From the IMG/VR virus record IMGVR_UViG_2778261696_000004, positions 1 through 31,461 of that record: 31,461 nucleotides of DNA; one strand, given 5' to 3'. The first letter of the stretch is position 1. Each line of letters begins with the position of its first letter. Below, piece by piece: positions 3,602 through 31,461 of the stretch. A program made the position numbers and the translations under genes. Source of the stretch: a virus (lineage: Duplodnaviria > Heunggongvirae > Uroviricota > Caudoviricetes). The notes under the pieces are model-generated. The model was not told the DNA's origin and made no database searches. It saw nothing but the letters and a program-made list of their open reading frames with translations.

Positions 3602-4453
3602 ATGATAAATTATGTCTACGGCGAACAACTGTACCAGGAGTTCGTCAGCTTCAGGGATCTCTTTCTAAAAAAAGCTGTTGCACGCGCCCAACACGTTGAT
3701 ACAGCCAGCGACGGTCGTCCTGTACGCCCGGTTGTCGTTCTACCGTTCAAAGAAACTGACAGCATTCAGGCTGAAATTGATAAATGGACTTTAATGGCGC
3801 GGGAACTGGAACAGTACCCAGACCTCAATATCCCAAAGACTATTTTATATCCAGTGCCTAACATCCTTCGCGGTGTGCGCAAGGTTACAACTTATCAGAC
3901 AGAAGCTGTGAACAGCGTCAACATGACCGCTGGCCGCATTATTCATCTGATTGATAAGGACATTCGCATCCAAAAAAGCGCGGGGATCAATGAGCACAGT
4001 GCGAAATACATAGAGAACCTGGAAGCAACAAAAGAGCTAATGAGGCAGTACCCGGAGGATGAAAAATTCCGTATGCGCGTACACGGCTTTAGCGAAACAA
4101 TGCTGCGCGTCCACTACATTTCCAGTAGCCCTAACTACAATGATGGTAAATCAGTTAGTTACCATGTGCCACTGTGTGGCGTGTTTATCTGCGATGAAAC
4201 TCTCCGTGATGGAATTATCATCAACGGTGAATTCGAAAAAGCAAAATTTAGCCTTTATGACTCCATAGAACCGATCATCTGCGACCGCTGGCCGCAAGCA
4301 AAAATATATCGCCTGGCAGATATTGAAAATGTAAAAAAACAAATTGCCATCACTCGCGAAGAGAAAAAGGTTAAGTCAGCCGCATCAGTTACGCGCAGCC
4401 GTAAAACCAAGAAGGGGCAGCCAGTAAACGACAACCCCGAAAGCGCGCAATAA
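3602..4453 (+). CDS. c1: C1 repressor of lysis (primary immunity repressor)
   Basis: 283-aa translation (MINYVYGEQLYQEFVSFRDLFLKK…NDNPESAQ) matches P1 C1 as recalled. Cognate operators are distributed across the window. Confidence 0.93.
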   Translation: MINYVYGEQLYQEFVSFRDLFLKKAVARAQHVDTASDGRPVRPVVVLPFKETDSIQAEIDKWTLMARELEQYPDLNIPKTILYPVPNILRGVRKVTTYQTEAVNSVNMTAGRIIHLIDKDIRIQKSAGINEHSAKYIENLEATKELMRQYPEDEKFRMRVHGFSETMLRVHYISSSPNYNDGKSVSYHVPLCGVFICDETLRDGIIINGEFEKAKFSLYDSIEPIICDRWPQAKIYRLADIENVKKQIAITREEKKVKSAASVTRSRKTKKGQPVNDNPESAQ

Positions 4454-4456
4454 ATT

Positions 4457-4478
4457 ATGCCCGGCATCAACCGGGCAT
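4457..4478. terminator. Bidirectional hairpin terminator between convergent c1 and the antirepressor gene
   Basis: ATGCCCGG-catcaa-CCGGGCAT, an 8-bp stem, lies between the two stop codons, with a U-rich flank on the minus side. Confidence 0.5.
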
Positions 4479-4485
4479 TCTTCCA

Positions 4486-5601
4486 TTATTCAGCCGCCAC
4501 CGGTTTTAACAAGCCAGCATCGAGCAGTTTACGCGTCAACCACTGCTGGCCTTTACCCGTTAATTGAGGCGTCAACCGTATCTGGTAGCCATCTTCATCA
4601 TCCAGCACCACTTCTTTCACCGTGAAATACCCGGCGTTGATGTATTGCTGGAGCGGTACATTTTTACGCCCGCCGGACGCAATCAGGATGCCGTTCTCCC
4701 GTAACCAGGCAAACAGCGCGTTTTGCTTAAGTCCAACAACCTTTGCAAAATTCCCAATCAGGATCCCTTTAGCTACTGATACCCGGTCGGCAAAATCGAC
4801 TTTAGGAGCGGCGGCCACCAGCTGCTGATTTAGCTGGTGGGCTTTCTGTTCCAGAAGCTGCTTTTGTTCAGCCAGTTCGGCAGCCAGGCGCAGAGCTTCT
4901 GGAAGCGTCTGGGGGATTGCGATCGGTTGCTGTTCTTTTTGTCGGAAGTAGCTGTCTTCCAGTTTTTCAAAGAATGCCCATGCCTGATCGGTTTCGAGCA
5001 TTTTAGCGTGACGGGCAGCTCCTCGTTCTGTCCAGAGGATGAGAGAGCGCGCTTTGGGGGAGACTGGATTTTGTGAGTAGTTTAAAGCTACCCGCAAATT
5101 TTTCAGCTCATCGCCAATAACCTTGAAAAAGTGCTTCGCTTCAACAAAGCGTACTTTGTTCTCATGATGATTCTGGCGAATGCGAATCGCTTCTGTACCA
5201 TACCCCTTAGCAAGAGTTTCGGTTGTTACGACACGCACTCCCTGCCACTCCAGAACGGGAATTTCATCCGGCTGATTCTGAACAACCACCAGTTCCGATT
5301 CCTGAACTGAAGGTGCATAAATTTTTTCTGATTTAACGTTAGTTGCTTTCATTCTGTGTGCCTCCTTGCGTGCTTCGGCTGCGACGGTTGCGTAATTCAG
5401 ATGACCCTGTTCGAGCAGGTATTCACGGATATCGGTTAGCAGAATGCGGTGAACCGCGTGTTTGTCCTTTCTCCGGTAAAGTTGTTTGGTGATCATGAAG
5501 TAGTTGGCAATAACGCCAGGTATATCCCTGGTACTGATACAGGCAGTGTGCTGTTCAATTGCCTCGATCATCTCTTCACGGGTAACTAACGATGTTCTCA
5601 T
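4486..5601 (-). CDS. phage antirepressor (N-terminal Rha/ORF6N-like region, C-terminal KilAC/ANT domain), 371 aa
   Basis: C-terminal segment (AKGILIGNFAKVVGLKQNALFAWLRENGIL…PLQQYINAGYFTVKEVV…LTGKGQQWL) fits the KilA-C antirepressor pattern. Its start overlaps the stop of the upstream small ORF. Confidence 0.7.
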   Translation of the reverse strand: MRTSLVTREEMIEAIEQHTACISTRDIPGVIANYFMITKQLYRRKDKHAVHRILLTDIREYLLEQGHLNYATVAAEARKEAHRMKATNVKSEKIYAPSVQESELVVVQNQPDEIPVLEWQGVRVVTTETLAKGYGTEAIRIRQNHHENKVRFVEAKHFFKVIGDELKNLRVALNYSQNPVSPKARSLILWTERGAARHAKMLETDQAWAFFEKLEDSYFRQKEQQPIAIPQTLPEALRLAAELAEQKQLLEQKAHQLNQQLVAAAPKVDFADRVSVAKGILIGNFAKVVGLKQNALFAWLRENGILIASGGRKNVPLQQYINAGYFTVKEVVLDDEDGYQIRLTPQLTGKGQQWLTRKLLDAGLLKPVAAE

Positions 5602-5819
5602 AGTCCCTCCTGAGCAGAAGCGTTAACAGGGAGGCACCAGTAACTGAGAGAATTGCGTGAATCAGTGGAAAAACGGGCAGAGAAAATACATGGGGCGTCA
5701 GGAAGCTGAGAACGTGCCTCATCTTCTGTCGGTGCAATAACGAAGTGATAGTGACGTTTTTGGCAGGAGTAAAAGCGCCAGATAAATTCAGGATGAGCAG
5801 GGGTAGGGATAGTAGCCAC
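5598..5819 (-). CDS. small protein, Icd/Ash-like (putative cell-division-inhibitor family), 73 aa, GTG start
   Basis: TPAHPEFIWRF…EDEARSQL resembles Ash/Icd-like proteins as I recall them. AAGGAGG Shine-Dalgarno upstream; translationally coupled to the antirepressor, the same layout as icd-ant in P1 immI. Confidence 0.45.
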   Translation of the reverse strand: MATIPTPAHPEFIWRFYSCQKRHYHFVIAPTEDEARSQLPDAPCIFSARFSTDSRNSLSYWCLPVNASAQEGL

Positions 5820-6004
5820 AATGGCAGCCTCCTTTTGCTAATTTAAGGAGCTACCGCGTGAGGTCTCAATCTCAATGGCGGTAGCACTGACTGGGTTGAG
5901 ACTACCGGCGCAAAAGGGAACCGGCCTGCCTTTCGGCAGCCCAGCCAGCACTACCATTGATCTCCGAGCTAAACGCTACGTATGGCTGTGCGATGGCATG
6001 ACAC

Positions 6005-6028
6005 AAAAAAAAGACGCTTTTGGCGTCT
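6005..6028 (-). terminator. Rho-independent terminator (AGACGC-caaaa-GCGTCT followed by a run of 7-8 T) on the minus strand
   Basis: Perfect 6-bp stem and T-run seen directly. Lies about 140 nt downstream of the operator at 6160-6176 and upstream of the icd-like SD. Confidence 0.65.
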
Positions 6029-6159
6029 GTGTCGCCTTTTGCATTATCCGGGGTCTCAATCCCGGCACCCGTTTTAATGAGGTGCCTGATAAGCATAAAC
6101 CGAAAATGCCTCAAGGCGCAAGAGGTCAGGTTCAATGTAACATCGGCAGTTAAAAAACA
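6029..6159 (-). ncRNA. candidate small regulatory RNA (c4-like antisense RNA candidate)
   Basis: ORF-poor segment bounded by a C1 operator and an intrinsic terminator. Contains hairpin CCGGG-ATTGAGAC-CCCGG (6048-6065) whose loop is complementary to GTCTCAA in the icd-like leader (5893-5906). Confidence 0.4.
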
Positions 6160-6176
6160 CAATTTATTAGAGCAAA
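6160..6176 (-). promoter_or_regulatory. C1 operator (TTTGCTCTAATAAATTG, 15/17) directly downstream of the pacB stop
   Basis: 17-mer match on the minus strand, heading the sRNA / icd-like / antirepressor unit. Confidence 0.65.
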
Positions 6177-6179
6177 TAT

Positions 6180-7664
6180 TCATTCATTAAGCCATGCCAG
6201 AGCTTCATCAACCTGCGCTTCGTCTTCGACGCTAAGCACTTCATCCTGGGGAACATAATCCGCCAGCATAGCGAAACAATATGTATCCCAATGGTCTGGT
6301 GAGTGCAGGTTGAGTTTTTTCTTCATATCCTCCTTACTCATCACCTTCCATTGACCTGCGGAATTTATCCCGACCGGTATCTTTGATGCTTCCTCTATAG
6401 TCGCAGCCCCCTTATCAAGCCGCATACGCCCTGATTTTACAGCTTCTGCCGCCTGAATATTCGCGAAAGCGCGCATATCGAAATAAAGGCTTTTATCTTC
6501 ACGGCTGTGCATCTTTTTACCCCAGCGGATACGCTGGACGGTAATACCATAGCGTTCGTACATCAGATCAGCCGTCGATTTCCCCAAGCCATCGCCATCA
6601 ATAGCTATGGTTATGTTCGGGAACCGTTCTGGGTTACATTCTGCGAAAATCTTGGCGGCTAACTGCGTTTCTGTAACGTCTGTGTATTCCAGCATACGAT
6701 AGTTGATTACACGGCGTTTATTTCGCTGGCCGGACACCATCATGATATTAATAACGGACTTATCTCGTCCTGTGCCACCAGCAACGTCAACACATGCAAC
6801 CCAGCCCCATCCTTTGGCAATCTTGACCTTTCGCCGCGTCGCCCGCTCAACCTCATCACGACCAAGAAGAAAGCCATCTTGCGATTTGGGGAATTCACCA
6901 CGTACTTTGATCATGTACATGGGGTTATCACGACCGCCATACTCCGCAAGTTTTGCTCGTATAAATTTTGCATCTACAAGCGGAGATTCTTCACTATTCA
7001 GTATTATCGCAGTAAACAATCCATCAGGATTTCCCGGGCGAATAGCTAGTCTGTGGTGTGAATCGTAGAAATAGCCTGAAGGTCGCGTAGGCTGGGAAAG
7101 AAGCAGAATACGGTTATCCTTACCGGTCAGCGCACCTGTTATCACACTGAATGCTTTATCACTCACACCCGACGCTTCGTCGATGATATACAAGAGATGA
7201 TCGGCGTGTTCACCAGCCAACGCCTCCTCATTTCCGGGGCGACAGGACTTTATCAATATTGTCCAAACACCCTTGCCAGTCACCTCAAAAAAAGACGTTT
7301 CTGTAAGAATGAAATACTTCGACAACCACGGGAATCTGCTAACAGCAGTAGCCCAATTGCTCTTTATGTATTTGAAAATACCATCAAGGACTTGCTGTCT
7401 TTTGTTAGCGACCAGAATGACGCGAGCGCCGGGGAAAAACATGATGAAGAGTATTGCAATGATACTCGTCATATCCGATTTACCAGTACCATGGCCGGAG
7501 GTCACACTTGTCCAACTGCCGTCCTGCTGCGTGGACTCAATGATCTCATCCTGCTGCCAGGTTGGTGTCTTCCCAAACAACACATCAGCGGCCGCAATCC
7601 AGTCATAACGATATAGCGCCACCAGCTCGCGCCAACGTGGGTCCGTTACGCAACTTCTGGCCAT
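6180..7664 (-). CDS. pacB: PacB, terminase large (ATPase) subunit
   Basis: 494 aa with Walker A (SGHGTGKSD). Size and position downstream of pacA match P1 pacB. Confidence 0.88.
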
Positions 7665-8857
7665 TAATCATCATCCCCGTACAGTTTGCGGGTAACTTCT
7701 TCGTCTTCCTCCTCGTCTTCGTCCAGATCCTGTTCAAGCCATGCTTCGTTTGATATGCCTTCCGCATCGACATCACCATAACCACCTGTATCGACGATAT
7801 CGGCAATTTCTTCTCTACGATGCTCAATCCACAATGCCGCATCAGCGCGGCGGCTGGCGGCCCGTTCTCGCGCGATTTTATCCAGATCTTCAAGTGATGG
7901 AGCGCCAGATGCTGTTTGGTTTTCCTCATCATCGGTATTGGTCTTAGGAGCACGCAGATCGGCTTTGATTTGCTCCAGCATCAGGGGCGGCACTTTTCCT
8001 CCATGCGCCTCGATGAATTCAGCCGCTTCCAGCACTGACCAGTTATTTTCACGCTTTCGTTCGTATGCCAGCTTAACAATGCCAGCTTGCCCCATAGATA
8101 AAGCGTGCTTTTCCGCCTCCCGGCTTTCTTTTCGATAGTTATTCCGGATGCTGTAAATGGTGTTGATCAGGCTGCTTATCTGCGCGGAACAGCTGTTTAG
8201 CATGCTCGCGATACGGTATTCAGGCGGAGTACCTTCATCATCGTCTTTTTGCTGATCGCGCATTTCCTGCACCAGGCGAATACACGTATCCCTGGCGTTC
8301 TCCAGCATAAGGAGATGAGAAAGAGACTTTTCCAGAAGAGTGGTTTCCAGAACATCGGCCCCGGACCGACGCAACATAGCGCGCGCGGCCTTCCGCGCTT
8401 CAACGTTATCTATCAGGTAATCGCCAGCTTCGAATTCAAAGCGTTCACCATCATCATCCAGGGTGTCGCGTTCCAGGCGATCACGTAAGGTCCGGTGGGC
8501 GCGGGTGATCACGTCATGATCATCTGAACGATCATTTATGCGCTTATTTTGGCGCTTCGCATTCTCGACTGCGGCACTGACAACGGCATTAACTCTTTGT
8601 TTTTCCGCTGTTTCAGCCGCAATGTGATCACCTGCATGTTGATCATTAGAGTGATCAATGATCATGCTTTTTAGTGGCTTCCTGACTGGCTTATTTGGCT
8701 TGCGGCTGTCCGCTGTCCTGGTGTCTTCTTTGAAGGCACGGAGATAACGACGTGCGGTATTAGGGTTAAGATTAAACTCGGCGGCATACTGTGCGATGGT
8801 GTAACCACCATCTCGCGCCAGGCGAGCAAAATTCTTCTTGTGATCGTCCCAGGTCAC
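7664..8857 (-). CDS. pacA: PacA, terminase small/pac-recognition subunit (GTG start)
   Basis: 397 aa, the P1 PacA size; the pac hexamer clusters lie inside its 5' coding region, as in P1. Confidence 0.85.
8478..8664. other. pac: pac packaging site: two clusters of (T/C)GATCA hexamers carrying 8 GATC Dam sites
   Basis: Left cluster 8478-8534 (CGATCA, TGATCA, TGATCA, CGATCA) and right cluster 8625-8664 (four TGATCA), about 90 bp apart. P1 pac is described as hexamer repeats with Dam sites inside pacA. Confidence 0.75.
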
Positions 8858-9395: not shown

Positions 9396-9465
9396 CCTGT
9401 CACCTACTGATTAGCCCATGTCAACTAATCAACGTGGGATATAATACCATCGATTAAAGAAATAG

Positions 9466-9482
9466 CAATACATTAGAGCAAT
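9466..9482 (-). promoter_or_regulatory. C1 operator-like site (ATTGCTCTAATGTATTG, 14/17) upstream of lpa
   Basis: 17-mer match on the minus strand between pdcB and lpa. Confidence 0.55.
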
Positions 9483-9483
9483 T

Positions 9484-10527
9484 TTATCTAACGCTCGACG
9501 AGTGACTTGTGATAGCGCCGACTCCAAGCGCGTAATCAAAGAACAATCGTTGATGCATCACCAGCCTACCGTGCGTCTTCTCCCAATTATCGCGGTCACG
9601 CTCAATATCACGCTGGCATGACTGGCACAGAGGAATTGCGTAAATGTCATGCGCGCATAATCGACTATGACGAACGATATAAGGCGTAATGTGAGCGCCA
9701 GCTCCCGCAGCTCCACACCCACAGCATGGACGGGAAGCAACAAAGTCCATGTACTCAGGTAATTTTAGCGATTGCAGTTTTGGTATTTTGAAATGCGCCA
9801 TGCCAGGGTCGGAGTCAACATCCACAGGGCATACTTTTGCACGCATCGGCGCGGCGCGTTCTTCCATCATCTGAACATATGCTGTAGCGCGATCGTCATA
9901 CGGGCGAATATCCGCCTCTTTCAGAGGTCCGCTATCCTGCGTTGCGGCTTTCATCTTATTTATTGATATACGGCAAACTTCTTCCGGCATCAGGTGCATC
10001 ATGTTGCGCATGAAAGCCCACCAGCACAGTTCCTGAATACTTAAATCATGGCCATCTGAAAGCCCCATTTCCTGACGGGCGACATCCAGTATCCAGTTAA
10101 CGCGATTATTATGCAGCGTTTCTTTCAGCTCATTAAAACCACGCATCCGGTAATGGTTATCGTGATGCCAGCACAACAACACCGCGCTATTGTCTCGTTC
10201 TGCGTGGACAATATGGTTGTCACACCAGCTACGATCTGCGGCCTGGCATTGCCCCTCTTTCCTGCGCAACCACGCCACCAGCGAGTCAATTCCACCAATA
10301 CGGCGAAACAGTTCATCGCTGTTAAAAAACGGCTGCAACGCCTCATTTGTTGCCATAGTTTGCTCGGAAACAACGAGGCCGTCGTCCATGTGCTCGATTA
10401 ACTCACGCGGCACCGGCTCCATAATAAATTTACGGCCAGCCTCCACCAGCTTTCTGACTTCCTGATCCACTTTGAATGTGGCGACGCCAAGCTCTTTTTG
10501 TACAAAGGGAGTAATTACGGCTTTCAC
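9484..10527 (-). CDS. pdcB: PdcB-like protein (post-doc), Cys-rich, 347 aa
   Basis: Follows doc-pdcA as in P1. Cys clusters (CCGCG, CQSCQ) suggest a zinc-binding or HNH-like module. Name assigned by synteny only. Confidence 0.5.
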
Positions 10528-29200: not shown

Positions 29201-29872
29201 ACTTGCCGGGTACGTCTCCGGCGAGGGCTTCCACCTCCGTATGCTTTTCGGCGCACCGCGCCCTGGCTGCAATTCGGTAACAGGGGATGCACAACCCTGG
29301 CTTCCAGCGTGATTAGCGCCTTCAGCATGACGGGATATACCCGTAAATTCGTGGAACTGTACCCAAAGTGCTGTTAAGCACCGCTGTTACGCTGAAAAGA
29401 AAACGCAACAGGAAAGGACGCTGACCAACAGATGGCCCCTTCTCGTTCATCTGGTTAATCACACCAGCGCCCTTACCTGTTGTGCCTCCCCGTTCCCTAA
29501 TACACAGACGGGGACACTCTGCGGTCGATTTTTTGACGGGGGACGACTCATACCCCGTGGCATCTGGCTTCTTAGGCCGCTACCATCATCAGATCATCGT
29601 TTGCATTTACTTTAATGGTCAGTTTCTAAACCGCCGCAAAGTCGCTAACCATGACGAAAACCCTGAAAAAAACGCCCACCCGAAGATGGGCAAACTGGAA
29701 GCTCGTAACGCACTTCGGCGTTGCCACTTAGGCGCATGGTCAACCTGGCAACTCGGTGGTTTGTCTGGGAGGACTAGGCCCAGCCATGCTTACCGCCGCG
29801 CCTGTCGCGGCTAACAGCTAAATCGCTCTATAAATCACGATTCATTGAGGCGATATTACACTAATAAATTTA

Positions 29873-31461
<1,589 letters not shown>

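Follow-up and report, generated by a model that had tools for sequence, protein, structure and literature searches.

In the bacteriophages P1 and P7, the immI operon is held in check by an antisense RNA, C4, which is processed from the operon's own transcript and pairs with the target sites a2 and b2, thereby blocking the translation of icd. Expression of ant requires translation of icd, and the resulting Ant1/Ant2 complex antagonises the repressor C1, while the operator Op51 places the upstream promoter of the operon under C1 control. This picture, drawn from the work of Citron and Schuster, Biere et al., Riedel et al., Heinrich et al. and Lobocka et al., is echoed in the notes of the P1 GenBank record. 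Here, we describe a locus of this kind in a 31,461-nucleotide stretch of viral DNA (IMG/VR record IMGVR_UViG_2778261696_000004, positions 1 to 31,461; hereafter the window), which its list of open reading frames (ORFs) and its homologies identify as P1-like phage-plasmid DNA. Between the master repressor gene c1 and the terminase subunit gene pacB lies a module of approximately 1.7 kb (4457-6176, minus strand), which is probably a second, complete immI-type immunity operon working by the P1/P7 paradigm. This interpretation draws on the anatomy, homologies, complementarity, covariation, purifying selection and prevalence of the module, all of which can be read from the DNA itself. An earlier, sequence-only reading had pointed to two minus-strand ORFs in the interval 4486-5819 (5598-5819, 73 aa; 4486-5601, 371 aa) as an Icd/Ash-like gene coupled to a KilAC antirepressor gene, inserted between c1 and pacB and convergent with c1. 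Both ORFs, their location and their orientation were borne out, while the full unit proved to be larger, comprising two RNA elements in addition.

The module occupies the place of the spacer that separates pacB and c1 in reference P1, where pacB ends at 93206 and c1 at 93231, the two stop codons being separated by a gap of 24 bp in which no operator is annotated. Junction alignment indicated that identity with P1 ends directly after the stop codon of c1 and restarts at ATTCATTAAGCC near the stop codon of pacB. The left flank, c1 (3602-4453, plus strand; 283-aa ORF), encodes a C1 protein 99% identical to that of P1 and is convergent with the module, while the right flank, pacB (6180-7664, minus strand; 494-aa ORF), is co-directional with it, its stop codon being located 3 nt from the operator of the module. 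In reference P1, immI is found at 48.1-49.7 kb, and the P1 map as given in the earlier reading (pacB and c1 adjacent, immI far away) was therefore accurate. For comparison with P1, the annotated features Oc4, P2c4, P1c4, a1, b1, c4, a2, b2, icd, ant1 and ant2 were employed and elements were placed by exact string search. The minus strand of 5560-6260 aligned colinearly with P1 immI from the operator through ant, and the elements of the module succeed one another in the order operator and upstream promoter, second promoter, a1/b1 leader with terminator, C4, a2/b2, icd, ant and terminator.

The closest relative of the window, plasmid pEC18-3, is 99.68% identical across 966-31461 (30.5 kb, the similarity beginning at 966) and 100% identical across 4400-6250, and it also possesses a canonical icd-ant-kilA-repL block, complete with a separate C4 and a c4-a1b1 leader. 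Similarly, phages RCS47, JL22 and 673R5 carry a full canonical c4-icd-ant besides the c1-pacB module. Because these four relatives hold both copies, the c1-pacB module is best read as an additional immI-type operon and not as a relocated one; the earlier reading had allowed for either, and the comparison strongly favours an additional copy. The module is also a mosaic. From the leader through C4 into the 5' end of icd, it shares 94.8% nucleotide identity with a module of phage D6; the final 330 nt or so of ant show 87% identity to P1 ant1, and approximately 117 nt of central ant show about 90% identity to the ant genes of Shiga toxin-encoding (Stx) phages.

The icd-like gene (5598-5819, minus strand) encodes 73 aa from a GTG start codon. 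Its product scores 49.8 bits with the NCBIfam model phage_ICD_like (NF033153; cut-off 25, E 2.6e-13) and shares 81% identity with P1 Icd, while a Pfam scan of this ORF returned no match, Ash (PF10554) included. The Icd half of the label given to it previously is thus retained, whereas the Ash half belongs to a 39-aa ORF described below. The icd stop codon and the ant start codon overlap as ATGA (5598-5601), the same 4-nt overlap that joins icd and ant1 in P1, and this, together with the colinearity, agrees with the immI-like coupling originally proposed. The Ant1-like antirepressor gene, ant (4486-5601, minus strand), encodes 371 aa, and its assignment to the KilAC antirepressors is sustained by a highly significant Pfam ANT/KilAC match (PF03374) at residues 259-360 (E 5.8e-32, 110.7 bits against a gathering score of 25.3). 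A further Pfam domain, ORF6N, was identified at residues 116-201 (E 3.6e-19), and an NCBIfam scan of Ant yielded no match. Over its full length, Ant is 56% identical to P1 Ant1 (E 5e-129): the stretches 1-85 and 225-371 resemble P1 Ant1 (with approximately 92% identity in the latter), and the centre is replaced by ORF6N, KilAC being the sole domain in P1 Ant1 and in the canonical Ant of pEC18-3.

Additionally, an Ant2-like in-frame internal product of 288 aa (4486-5352, minus strand) is predicted to be translated from Met84, whose ATG (5350-5352) is preceded by a strong, conserved Shine-Dalgarno sequence (AAGGAGG, 5361-5367) and which aligns with the P1 ant2 start (HRM, codon 84 of ant1). Both ORFs are intact in the window, RCS47 and JL22. 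Relative to RCS47, with which Ant shares 91% identity, ant has a ratio of nonsynonymous to synonymous substitution rates (dN/dS) of 0.18 and icd one of 0.04, both genes thus being under purifying selection. A GC-rich hairpin of nine pairs between the c1 and ant stop codons (4457-4478, minus strand; ATGCCCGG-TTGA-TGCCGGGCAT) constitutes a terminator-like site, which probably serves as the terminator of the ant operon facing c1 and may possibly be bidirectional.

Between the operator and icd are two RNA elements. The gene for the C4 antisense RNA (5874-5961, minus strand) matches the full Rfam model RF01695 (clan CL00128) with 75 bits against a gathering score of 45 (E 4e-13); it lies upstream of icd in the same transcription unit and is colinear with P1 c4, and its predicted fold has a minimum free energy of -46.4 kcal/mol (z -5.6). 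In this fold, a' (5896-5902; GTCTCAA, RNA GUCUCAA) lies unpaired in an internal single strand and b' (5910-5917; CCTTTTGC, RNA CCUUUUGC) in the loop of the second hairpin. An Rfam scan of the whole window revealed no second C4. Where P1 immI has the Rfam c4-a1b1 motif, the module has an isrK-type leader RNA (6007-6085, minus strand), which matches the full Rfam model RF01394 with 59 bits against a gathering score of 50 and is equipped with an intrinsic terminator (6005-6027, minus strand; a hairpin and T8, the scanned terminator-like site being 6012-6028). The target sites a1 (TTGAGAC, 6053-6059) and b1 (GCAAAAGG, 6035-6042) are situated within this leader, while a2 (TTGAGAC, 5863-5869) and b2 (GCAAAAGG, 5831-5838) precede icd; all four are on the minus strand and are exact complements of a' or b', respectively, and b2 overlaps the icd Shine-Dalgarno sequence AAGGAGG. 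By the P1 paradigm, C4 and its four target sites, and not C1, would be the primary lock on ant. The earlier proposal of a repressor/antirepressor switch operating through C1 had correctly recognised the operator and had missed the C4 gene with its four targets.

Two small ORFs overlap these RNA elements. The 39-aa ORF at 5838-5957 (minus strand), inside the C4 gene and the a2/b2 leader, matches Pfam PF10554 (Phage_ASH; 29.1 bits, cut-off 26) and is labelled 'ash family protein' in RefSeq (WP_071527722.1); the Ash model appears to match a translated conserved RNA gene, and the 39-aa protein annotation is probably spurious. A 92-aa ORF on the plus strand (5875-6153), listed as a hypothetical protein in pEC18-3 (WP_342454468.1), runs antisense to the C4 and isrK-type RNAs, matches no family and is probably not a gene.

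The specificity of C4 was assessed from site-level complementarity and loop-only duplexes, as whole-molecule C4-leader duplex energies were uninformative, being dominated by long GC stems. The C4 RNAs of P1 (a' CTGTCAA, b' TCACTAAC), of the canonical pEC18-3 operon (a' CTGCTAA, b' TCACAATC) and of the window module each find exact complements at four sites, and each only within its own module. For loop-only b' duplexes, the energies lay between -13.9 and -15.1 kcal/mol when the partners were cognate and between -5.6 and -10.5 kcal/mol when they were not. Furthermore, the c1-pacB module itself varies: in RCS47, b' is CCTTTGAC and both b1 and b2 read GTCAAAGG instead of GCAAAAGG, while in 673R5, a' is AGGCCAA and b' is CCTTGGAC, with all four targets changed to fit, two of them via G-U pairs. 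Three specificity alleles with compensatory changes are accordingly present at the c1-pacB site. To extend this comparison, IMG/VR was scanned with a conserved 17-mer of the leader, which retrieved 120 loci; with the window added and duplicates removed, 102 distinct sequences were retained, carrying 36 different (a',b') alleles. Full complementarity at a1, b1, a2 and b2 was observed in 96 of these 102 modules, as opposed to 0.15% of trials with non-cognate combinations. We interpret this four-site covariation as the mark of a functional antisense system whose specificity is under diversifying selection, in keeping with the logic of P1/P7 heteroimmunity. Since the C4 loops differ (the canonical loops being those of pEC18-3), the module and the canonical immI are predicted to be independently, or orthogonally, locked operons for two related antirepressors aimed at one repressor.

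The C1 operator of the module, which corresponds to P1 Op51/Oc4 and was already noted in the earlier reading, is located at 6160-6176 (minus strand; TTTGCTCTAATAAATTG), has two mismatches from the 17-bp C1 consensus and aligns with P1 Oc4. It is identical in RCS47, JL22 and 673R5, and all four P1-like copies aligned contain the segment with the operator and the upstream promoter, while the operator is missing from the homologous D6 module, as judged by alignment, and from the P1 pacB-c1 junction. Among 121 homologous modules, 29 possess an operator-like site, and 24 of those 29 also have the 3' end of pacB; the remaining modules of the sample, from other phages, have no such site. The operator thus appears to be a P1-specific addition that wires the module into the C1 circuit. 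It is overlapped by the -35 hexamer of a putative C1-controlled promoter (6134-6162, minus strand; TTGTGT-17-TACATT), equivalent to P1 P51a/P2c4 and colinear with P1 Oc4/P2c4. A putative constitutive promoter (6092-6121, minus strand; TTGCGC-18-TATGCT), equivalent to P1 P51b/P1c4 and to PisrK, shows positional homology to the P1 immI promoter, and its -35 and -10 hexamers are conserved in D6 (TTGCGC/TATATT). Both promoters are proposed on the basis of position and conservation relative to the annotated P1 promoters and D6.

With up to three mismatches allowed, the window contains 13 C1 operator-like sites, compared to 0.15 expected by chance. Apart from that of the module, these are found at 1383, 2944, 3027, 3491, 6952, 9466, 14239, 16331, 16380 and 20004, and as a bivalent operator in which two inverted matches with two and zero mismatches overlap (29855-29871, plus strand; 29866-29882, minus strand). 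The bivalent operator lies upstream of tRNA genes and, by pEC18-3 coordinate mapping, of the dnaB-like (ban) region.

If the module operates as in P1/P7, the constitutive promoter would yield C4 in the lysogen, processed from the same transcript, and pairing of its a' and b' with a2 and b2 would block translation of icd; because ant depends on icd translation, no antirepressor would then be made. C1 bound at 6160-6176 would further shut the upstream promoter. Once set free by termination as a short RNA, the a1/b1 leader could compete for C4, acting as a decoy or activator in the way proposed for IsrK/STnc1160 in Gifsy-1 and for seqA/CI in P4 (PMC4825925). Where C4 is absent or titrated, Icd and Ant1/Ant2 would be produced and Ant would inactivate C1, favouring lytic growth; such derepression would be expected upon entry into a cell without this C4 allele. 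Additionally, read-through from pacAB may feed the module, because pacB is co-directional and ends so close to the operator.

A number of observations weigh against the module being a second operon that functions in this manner. A consensus promoter scan called neither of the proposed promoters, whose hexamers are weak, and the operator deviates from the consensus at two positions, such that C1 binding at 6160-6176 is a prediction. Orthogonality is likewise a prediction, as non-cognate pairs also gave appreciable duplex energies. In Ant, the central third is taken up by ORF6N, related to the antirepressors of lambdoid and Stx phages, and C1 is therefore not assured as the target of the protein. 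The presence of a canonical immI in the window's own molecule is presumed from the 99.7% identical relative, the window stopping short of that position. In the RefSeq/PLSDB gene table, DNA matching the window at 100% identity carries a single entry for ant, a 110-aa C-terminal 'KilAC domain-containing protein' (pEC18-3 57672-58004 and pXH987-OQX 39248-39580), and no gene is listed over the N-terminal 260 ant codons, though the ORF is intact at 371 aa, as annotated in RCS47. In phage vB_EcoM-673R5, a frameshift or a sequencing error divides the c1-pacB ant between two frames of 264 and 210 aa that overlap; C4, the target sites and icd are intact in this copy, which bears the third specificity allele, and its leader scores below the isrK gathering score. 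Finally, the c1-module block survives in degraded P1 derivatives, and the module is not always kept functional.

The leader invites a different emphasis, in which the locus would be mainly an IsrK-type positive switch as in isrK-orf45-anrP of Gifsy-1: the self-structured read-through mRNA would be inactive, the short leader would open the icd ribosome-binding site in trans, and C4 would be secondary at most. The leader does exceed the Rfam isrK gathering score and has an intrinsic terminator, the downstream leader can fold such that CUCCUU pairs with the icd Shine-Dalgarno sequence, and in Gifsy-1 the same layout, with the processed RNA STnc1160 in the place of C4, gives IsrK-dependent activation of AnrP (PMC4825925). 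However, the hairpin that would sequester the Shine-Dalgarno sequence is no better than those of shuffled sequences (z -1.4), and the covariation at the four sites follows the C4 loops, as would be predicted for C4-centred repression with a decoy leader. The IsrK and C4 models are, moreover, compatible, as the leader would activate by titrating C4. A mainly IsrK-driven switch is considered possible but doubtful. A second departure from the P1 scheme concerns the target of Ant, which may be the repressors of other resident prophages of the lambdoid or Stx type rather than C1, making the module a weapon for inter-phage induction or a moron derived from such phages. The ORF6N centre with its Stx-phage-like segment would fit this proposal, as would the close similarity of the C4, leader and 5' icd region to D6, the antirepressor of which is of a different, Rha type. 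Against it, the N-terminal 85 aa and C-terminal 147 aa of Ant are P1-Ant1-like, the Ant2 start is conserved, and the acquired C1 operator, confined to copies in a P1 context, ties the module to the C1 circuit; a target other than C1 is thus judged unlikely.

Two further alternatives appear less probable still. The absence of another C4 from the 31-kb window would be expected if the module were the only immI of the phage, relocated to a position beside immC, yet the canonical immI position lies outside the window and pEC18-3, RCS47, JL22 and 673R5 hold both copies, which renders relocation very improbable. It is equally hard to credit that the module is a decaying, non-functional remnant of recombination. 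Such decay might be suspected from the frameshifted ant of 673R5, from the truncation of phi456 by IS1 and from the RefSeq calls, which include only a fragment of ant; on the other hand, the ORFs are intact in the window, RCS47 and JL22 with dN/dS well below 1, the RNA elements are undamaged, as are the four target sites, and they covary, and some 308 plasmids carry the module. Returning to the reading of the module as a second immI-type operon under C4 control, its fullest form would entail two orthogonal C4 locks, one at the canonical immI and one at c1-pacB, on two related antirepressors that converge on C1, with the c1-pacB lock being polymorphic (at least three alleles at this site and 36 in the wider family). 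This extension is put forward tentatively, as a proposition that is somewhat more likely to fail than to hold.

The insertion is common, as 308 PLSDB plasmids match 4400-6250 over at least 80% of its length while 314 hold an uninterrupted P1-type junction, the c1-pacB site being occupied in roughly half of the P1-like plasmids of this database. The RCS47 record annotates an ant gene at this site, RefSeq names the Icd-like and KilAC proteins of the module, and the insertion receives a one-sentence mention, with RCS47, in Venturini et al. 2019 (PMC6906374). The arrangement is therefore not new, contrary to what the sequence-only reading had supposed. No publication describing the RNAs, target sites, operator or allele differences of the module was found in the literature covered, which did not extend to the D6 paper (Gilcrease & Casjens 2018), and the public records inspected carry no annotation for the operator, the C4 and isrK-type RNAs, their four target sites or the Ant2 start. 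The module may thus be described as an ordinary, uncharacterised representative of a textbook system, for whose RNAs Rfam already has the families C4, c4-a1b1 and isrK.

Two records with altered copies deserve separate mention. In phi456 (OR339795), an IS1 insertion removed the module except for the last 110 codons of ant, along with pacAB, and this locus was rejected as a variant module on account of the truncation. The multidrug-resistant chimera p276M-CTX-M-55 (NZ_CP044294) keeps coi-c1 and the module and has lost pacB and most phage genes. It was the one plasmid examined among those with a single BLAST place, in which the module might have replaced the canonical immI, and being a degraded chimera it lends no support to such a replacement.

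Elsewhere in the window, pacA follows pacB on the same strand (7664-8857, minus). Positions 1-965 represent the end of a Tn3-family (TnAs1/TnAs3-like) transposase, indicating that the source was a P1-like plasmid with a transposon insertion beside the cre-side genes. Three tRNA genes were identified, all on the minus strand, at 27540-27615 (anticodon CAT, called Met by ARAGORN), 29047-29122 (TGT, Thr) and 29125-29200 (GTT, Asn). In pEC18-3, a sok antitoxin RNA (9445-9619; Rfam, 114 bits) lies beside hokD, a few kb from the canonical immI.

The tripartite immunity of P1/P7 is textbook knowledge with a single immI, while approximately half of the natural P1-like plasmids, important carriers of extended-spectrum beta-lactamase and other resistance genes, carry beside c1 another immI with a different key. 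The outcomes of lysis/lysogeny decisions and of superinfection among natural P1-like elements may therefore depart from the rules derived from P1 and P7, including which resident plasmids are induced or displaced. Should the two-lock arrangement be real, immunity would be combinatorial: a superinfecting phage would break the immunity of any resident missing either of its C4 alleles, and a resident would be protected only against phages matched at both loci. Moreover, the window C4 allele is that of D6, and the same RNA could therefore, if this is true, cross-silence the antirepressors of unrelated co-resident phages. The practical value lies in annotation, namely of the RNAs, target sites, operator and Ant2 start, of an ant gene that is shortened in the inspected RefSeq records, and of a piece of C4 that is called an 'ash family protein'. 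Overall, the interest of the module is low to moderate, and moderate at best.

Among the systems with which the module may be compared, the c1-pacB 'ant' insertion of RCS47 and pTZ20_1P is the same module at the same site (92.9% nucleotide identity for RCS47), and neither the RCS47 GenBank record nor PMC6906374 gives an account of its C4 and isrK RNAs, operator or target sites. The isrK-STnc1160-orf45-anrP locus of the Salmonella prophage Gifsy-1 (Hershko-Shalev et al. 2016, PMC4825925) shares with the module a leader of the isrK family that ends in a terminator and is followed by a processed small RNA, as well as a short upstream ORF translationally coupled to an antirepressor gene. It differs in belonging to a lambdoid prophage, in having its output through AntQ and in lacking a C1 operator, and the published model stresses trans-activation by IsrK over C4-type repression; Hfq binding and trans-activation of the downstream ORF by an isrK RNA are known only for Gifsy-1 (PMC4825925). 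The immunity system of P4 (CI RNA, seqA/seqC), to which PMC4825925 draws a comparison, similarly employs a processed leader antisense RNA that pairs with repeated sites up- and downstream of itself, a likeness taken from its description, whereas it controls transcription termination of replication genes and not icd-ant.

A further system for comparison is the second C4-icd module of D6 (orf83/orf82, MF356679 74.0-75.5 kb), in which a', b' and the target sites are identical to those of the window, implying the same predicted specificity. In contrast to the window module, that of D6 is devoid of the C1 operator and upstream promoter segment, and its antirepressor is a 313-aa Rha-type protein with no homology to P1 Ant1. 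The other C4-icd module of D6 is a P1-like c4-icd region (20806-21177, 88.9% identity), and duplicate immI-type modules are therefore not confined to P1-like genomes. In the canonical P1/P7 immI, the operator, two promoters, a1/b1, C4 and a2/b2 over the icd ribosome-binding site follow one another in the order and at the distances seen in the module; icd and ant overlap by 4 nt in both, Ant2 has its internal start, and the proteins correspond (Icd 81%, Ant termini 64-92% identical). The two differ in C4 specificity, in the leader, which belongs to the c4-a1b1 type in P1 and to the isrK type in the module, where it has a clear intrinsic terminator, and in the centre of Ant, which in the module is ORF6N. 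They also differ in place, as immI lies between sim and kilA-repL and the module lies between pacB and c1, without sim, kilA or repL; the canonical position (sim - immI - kilA/repL) is, however, a feature that defines the locus and not the kind of operon.

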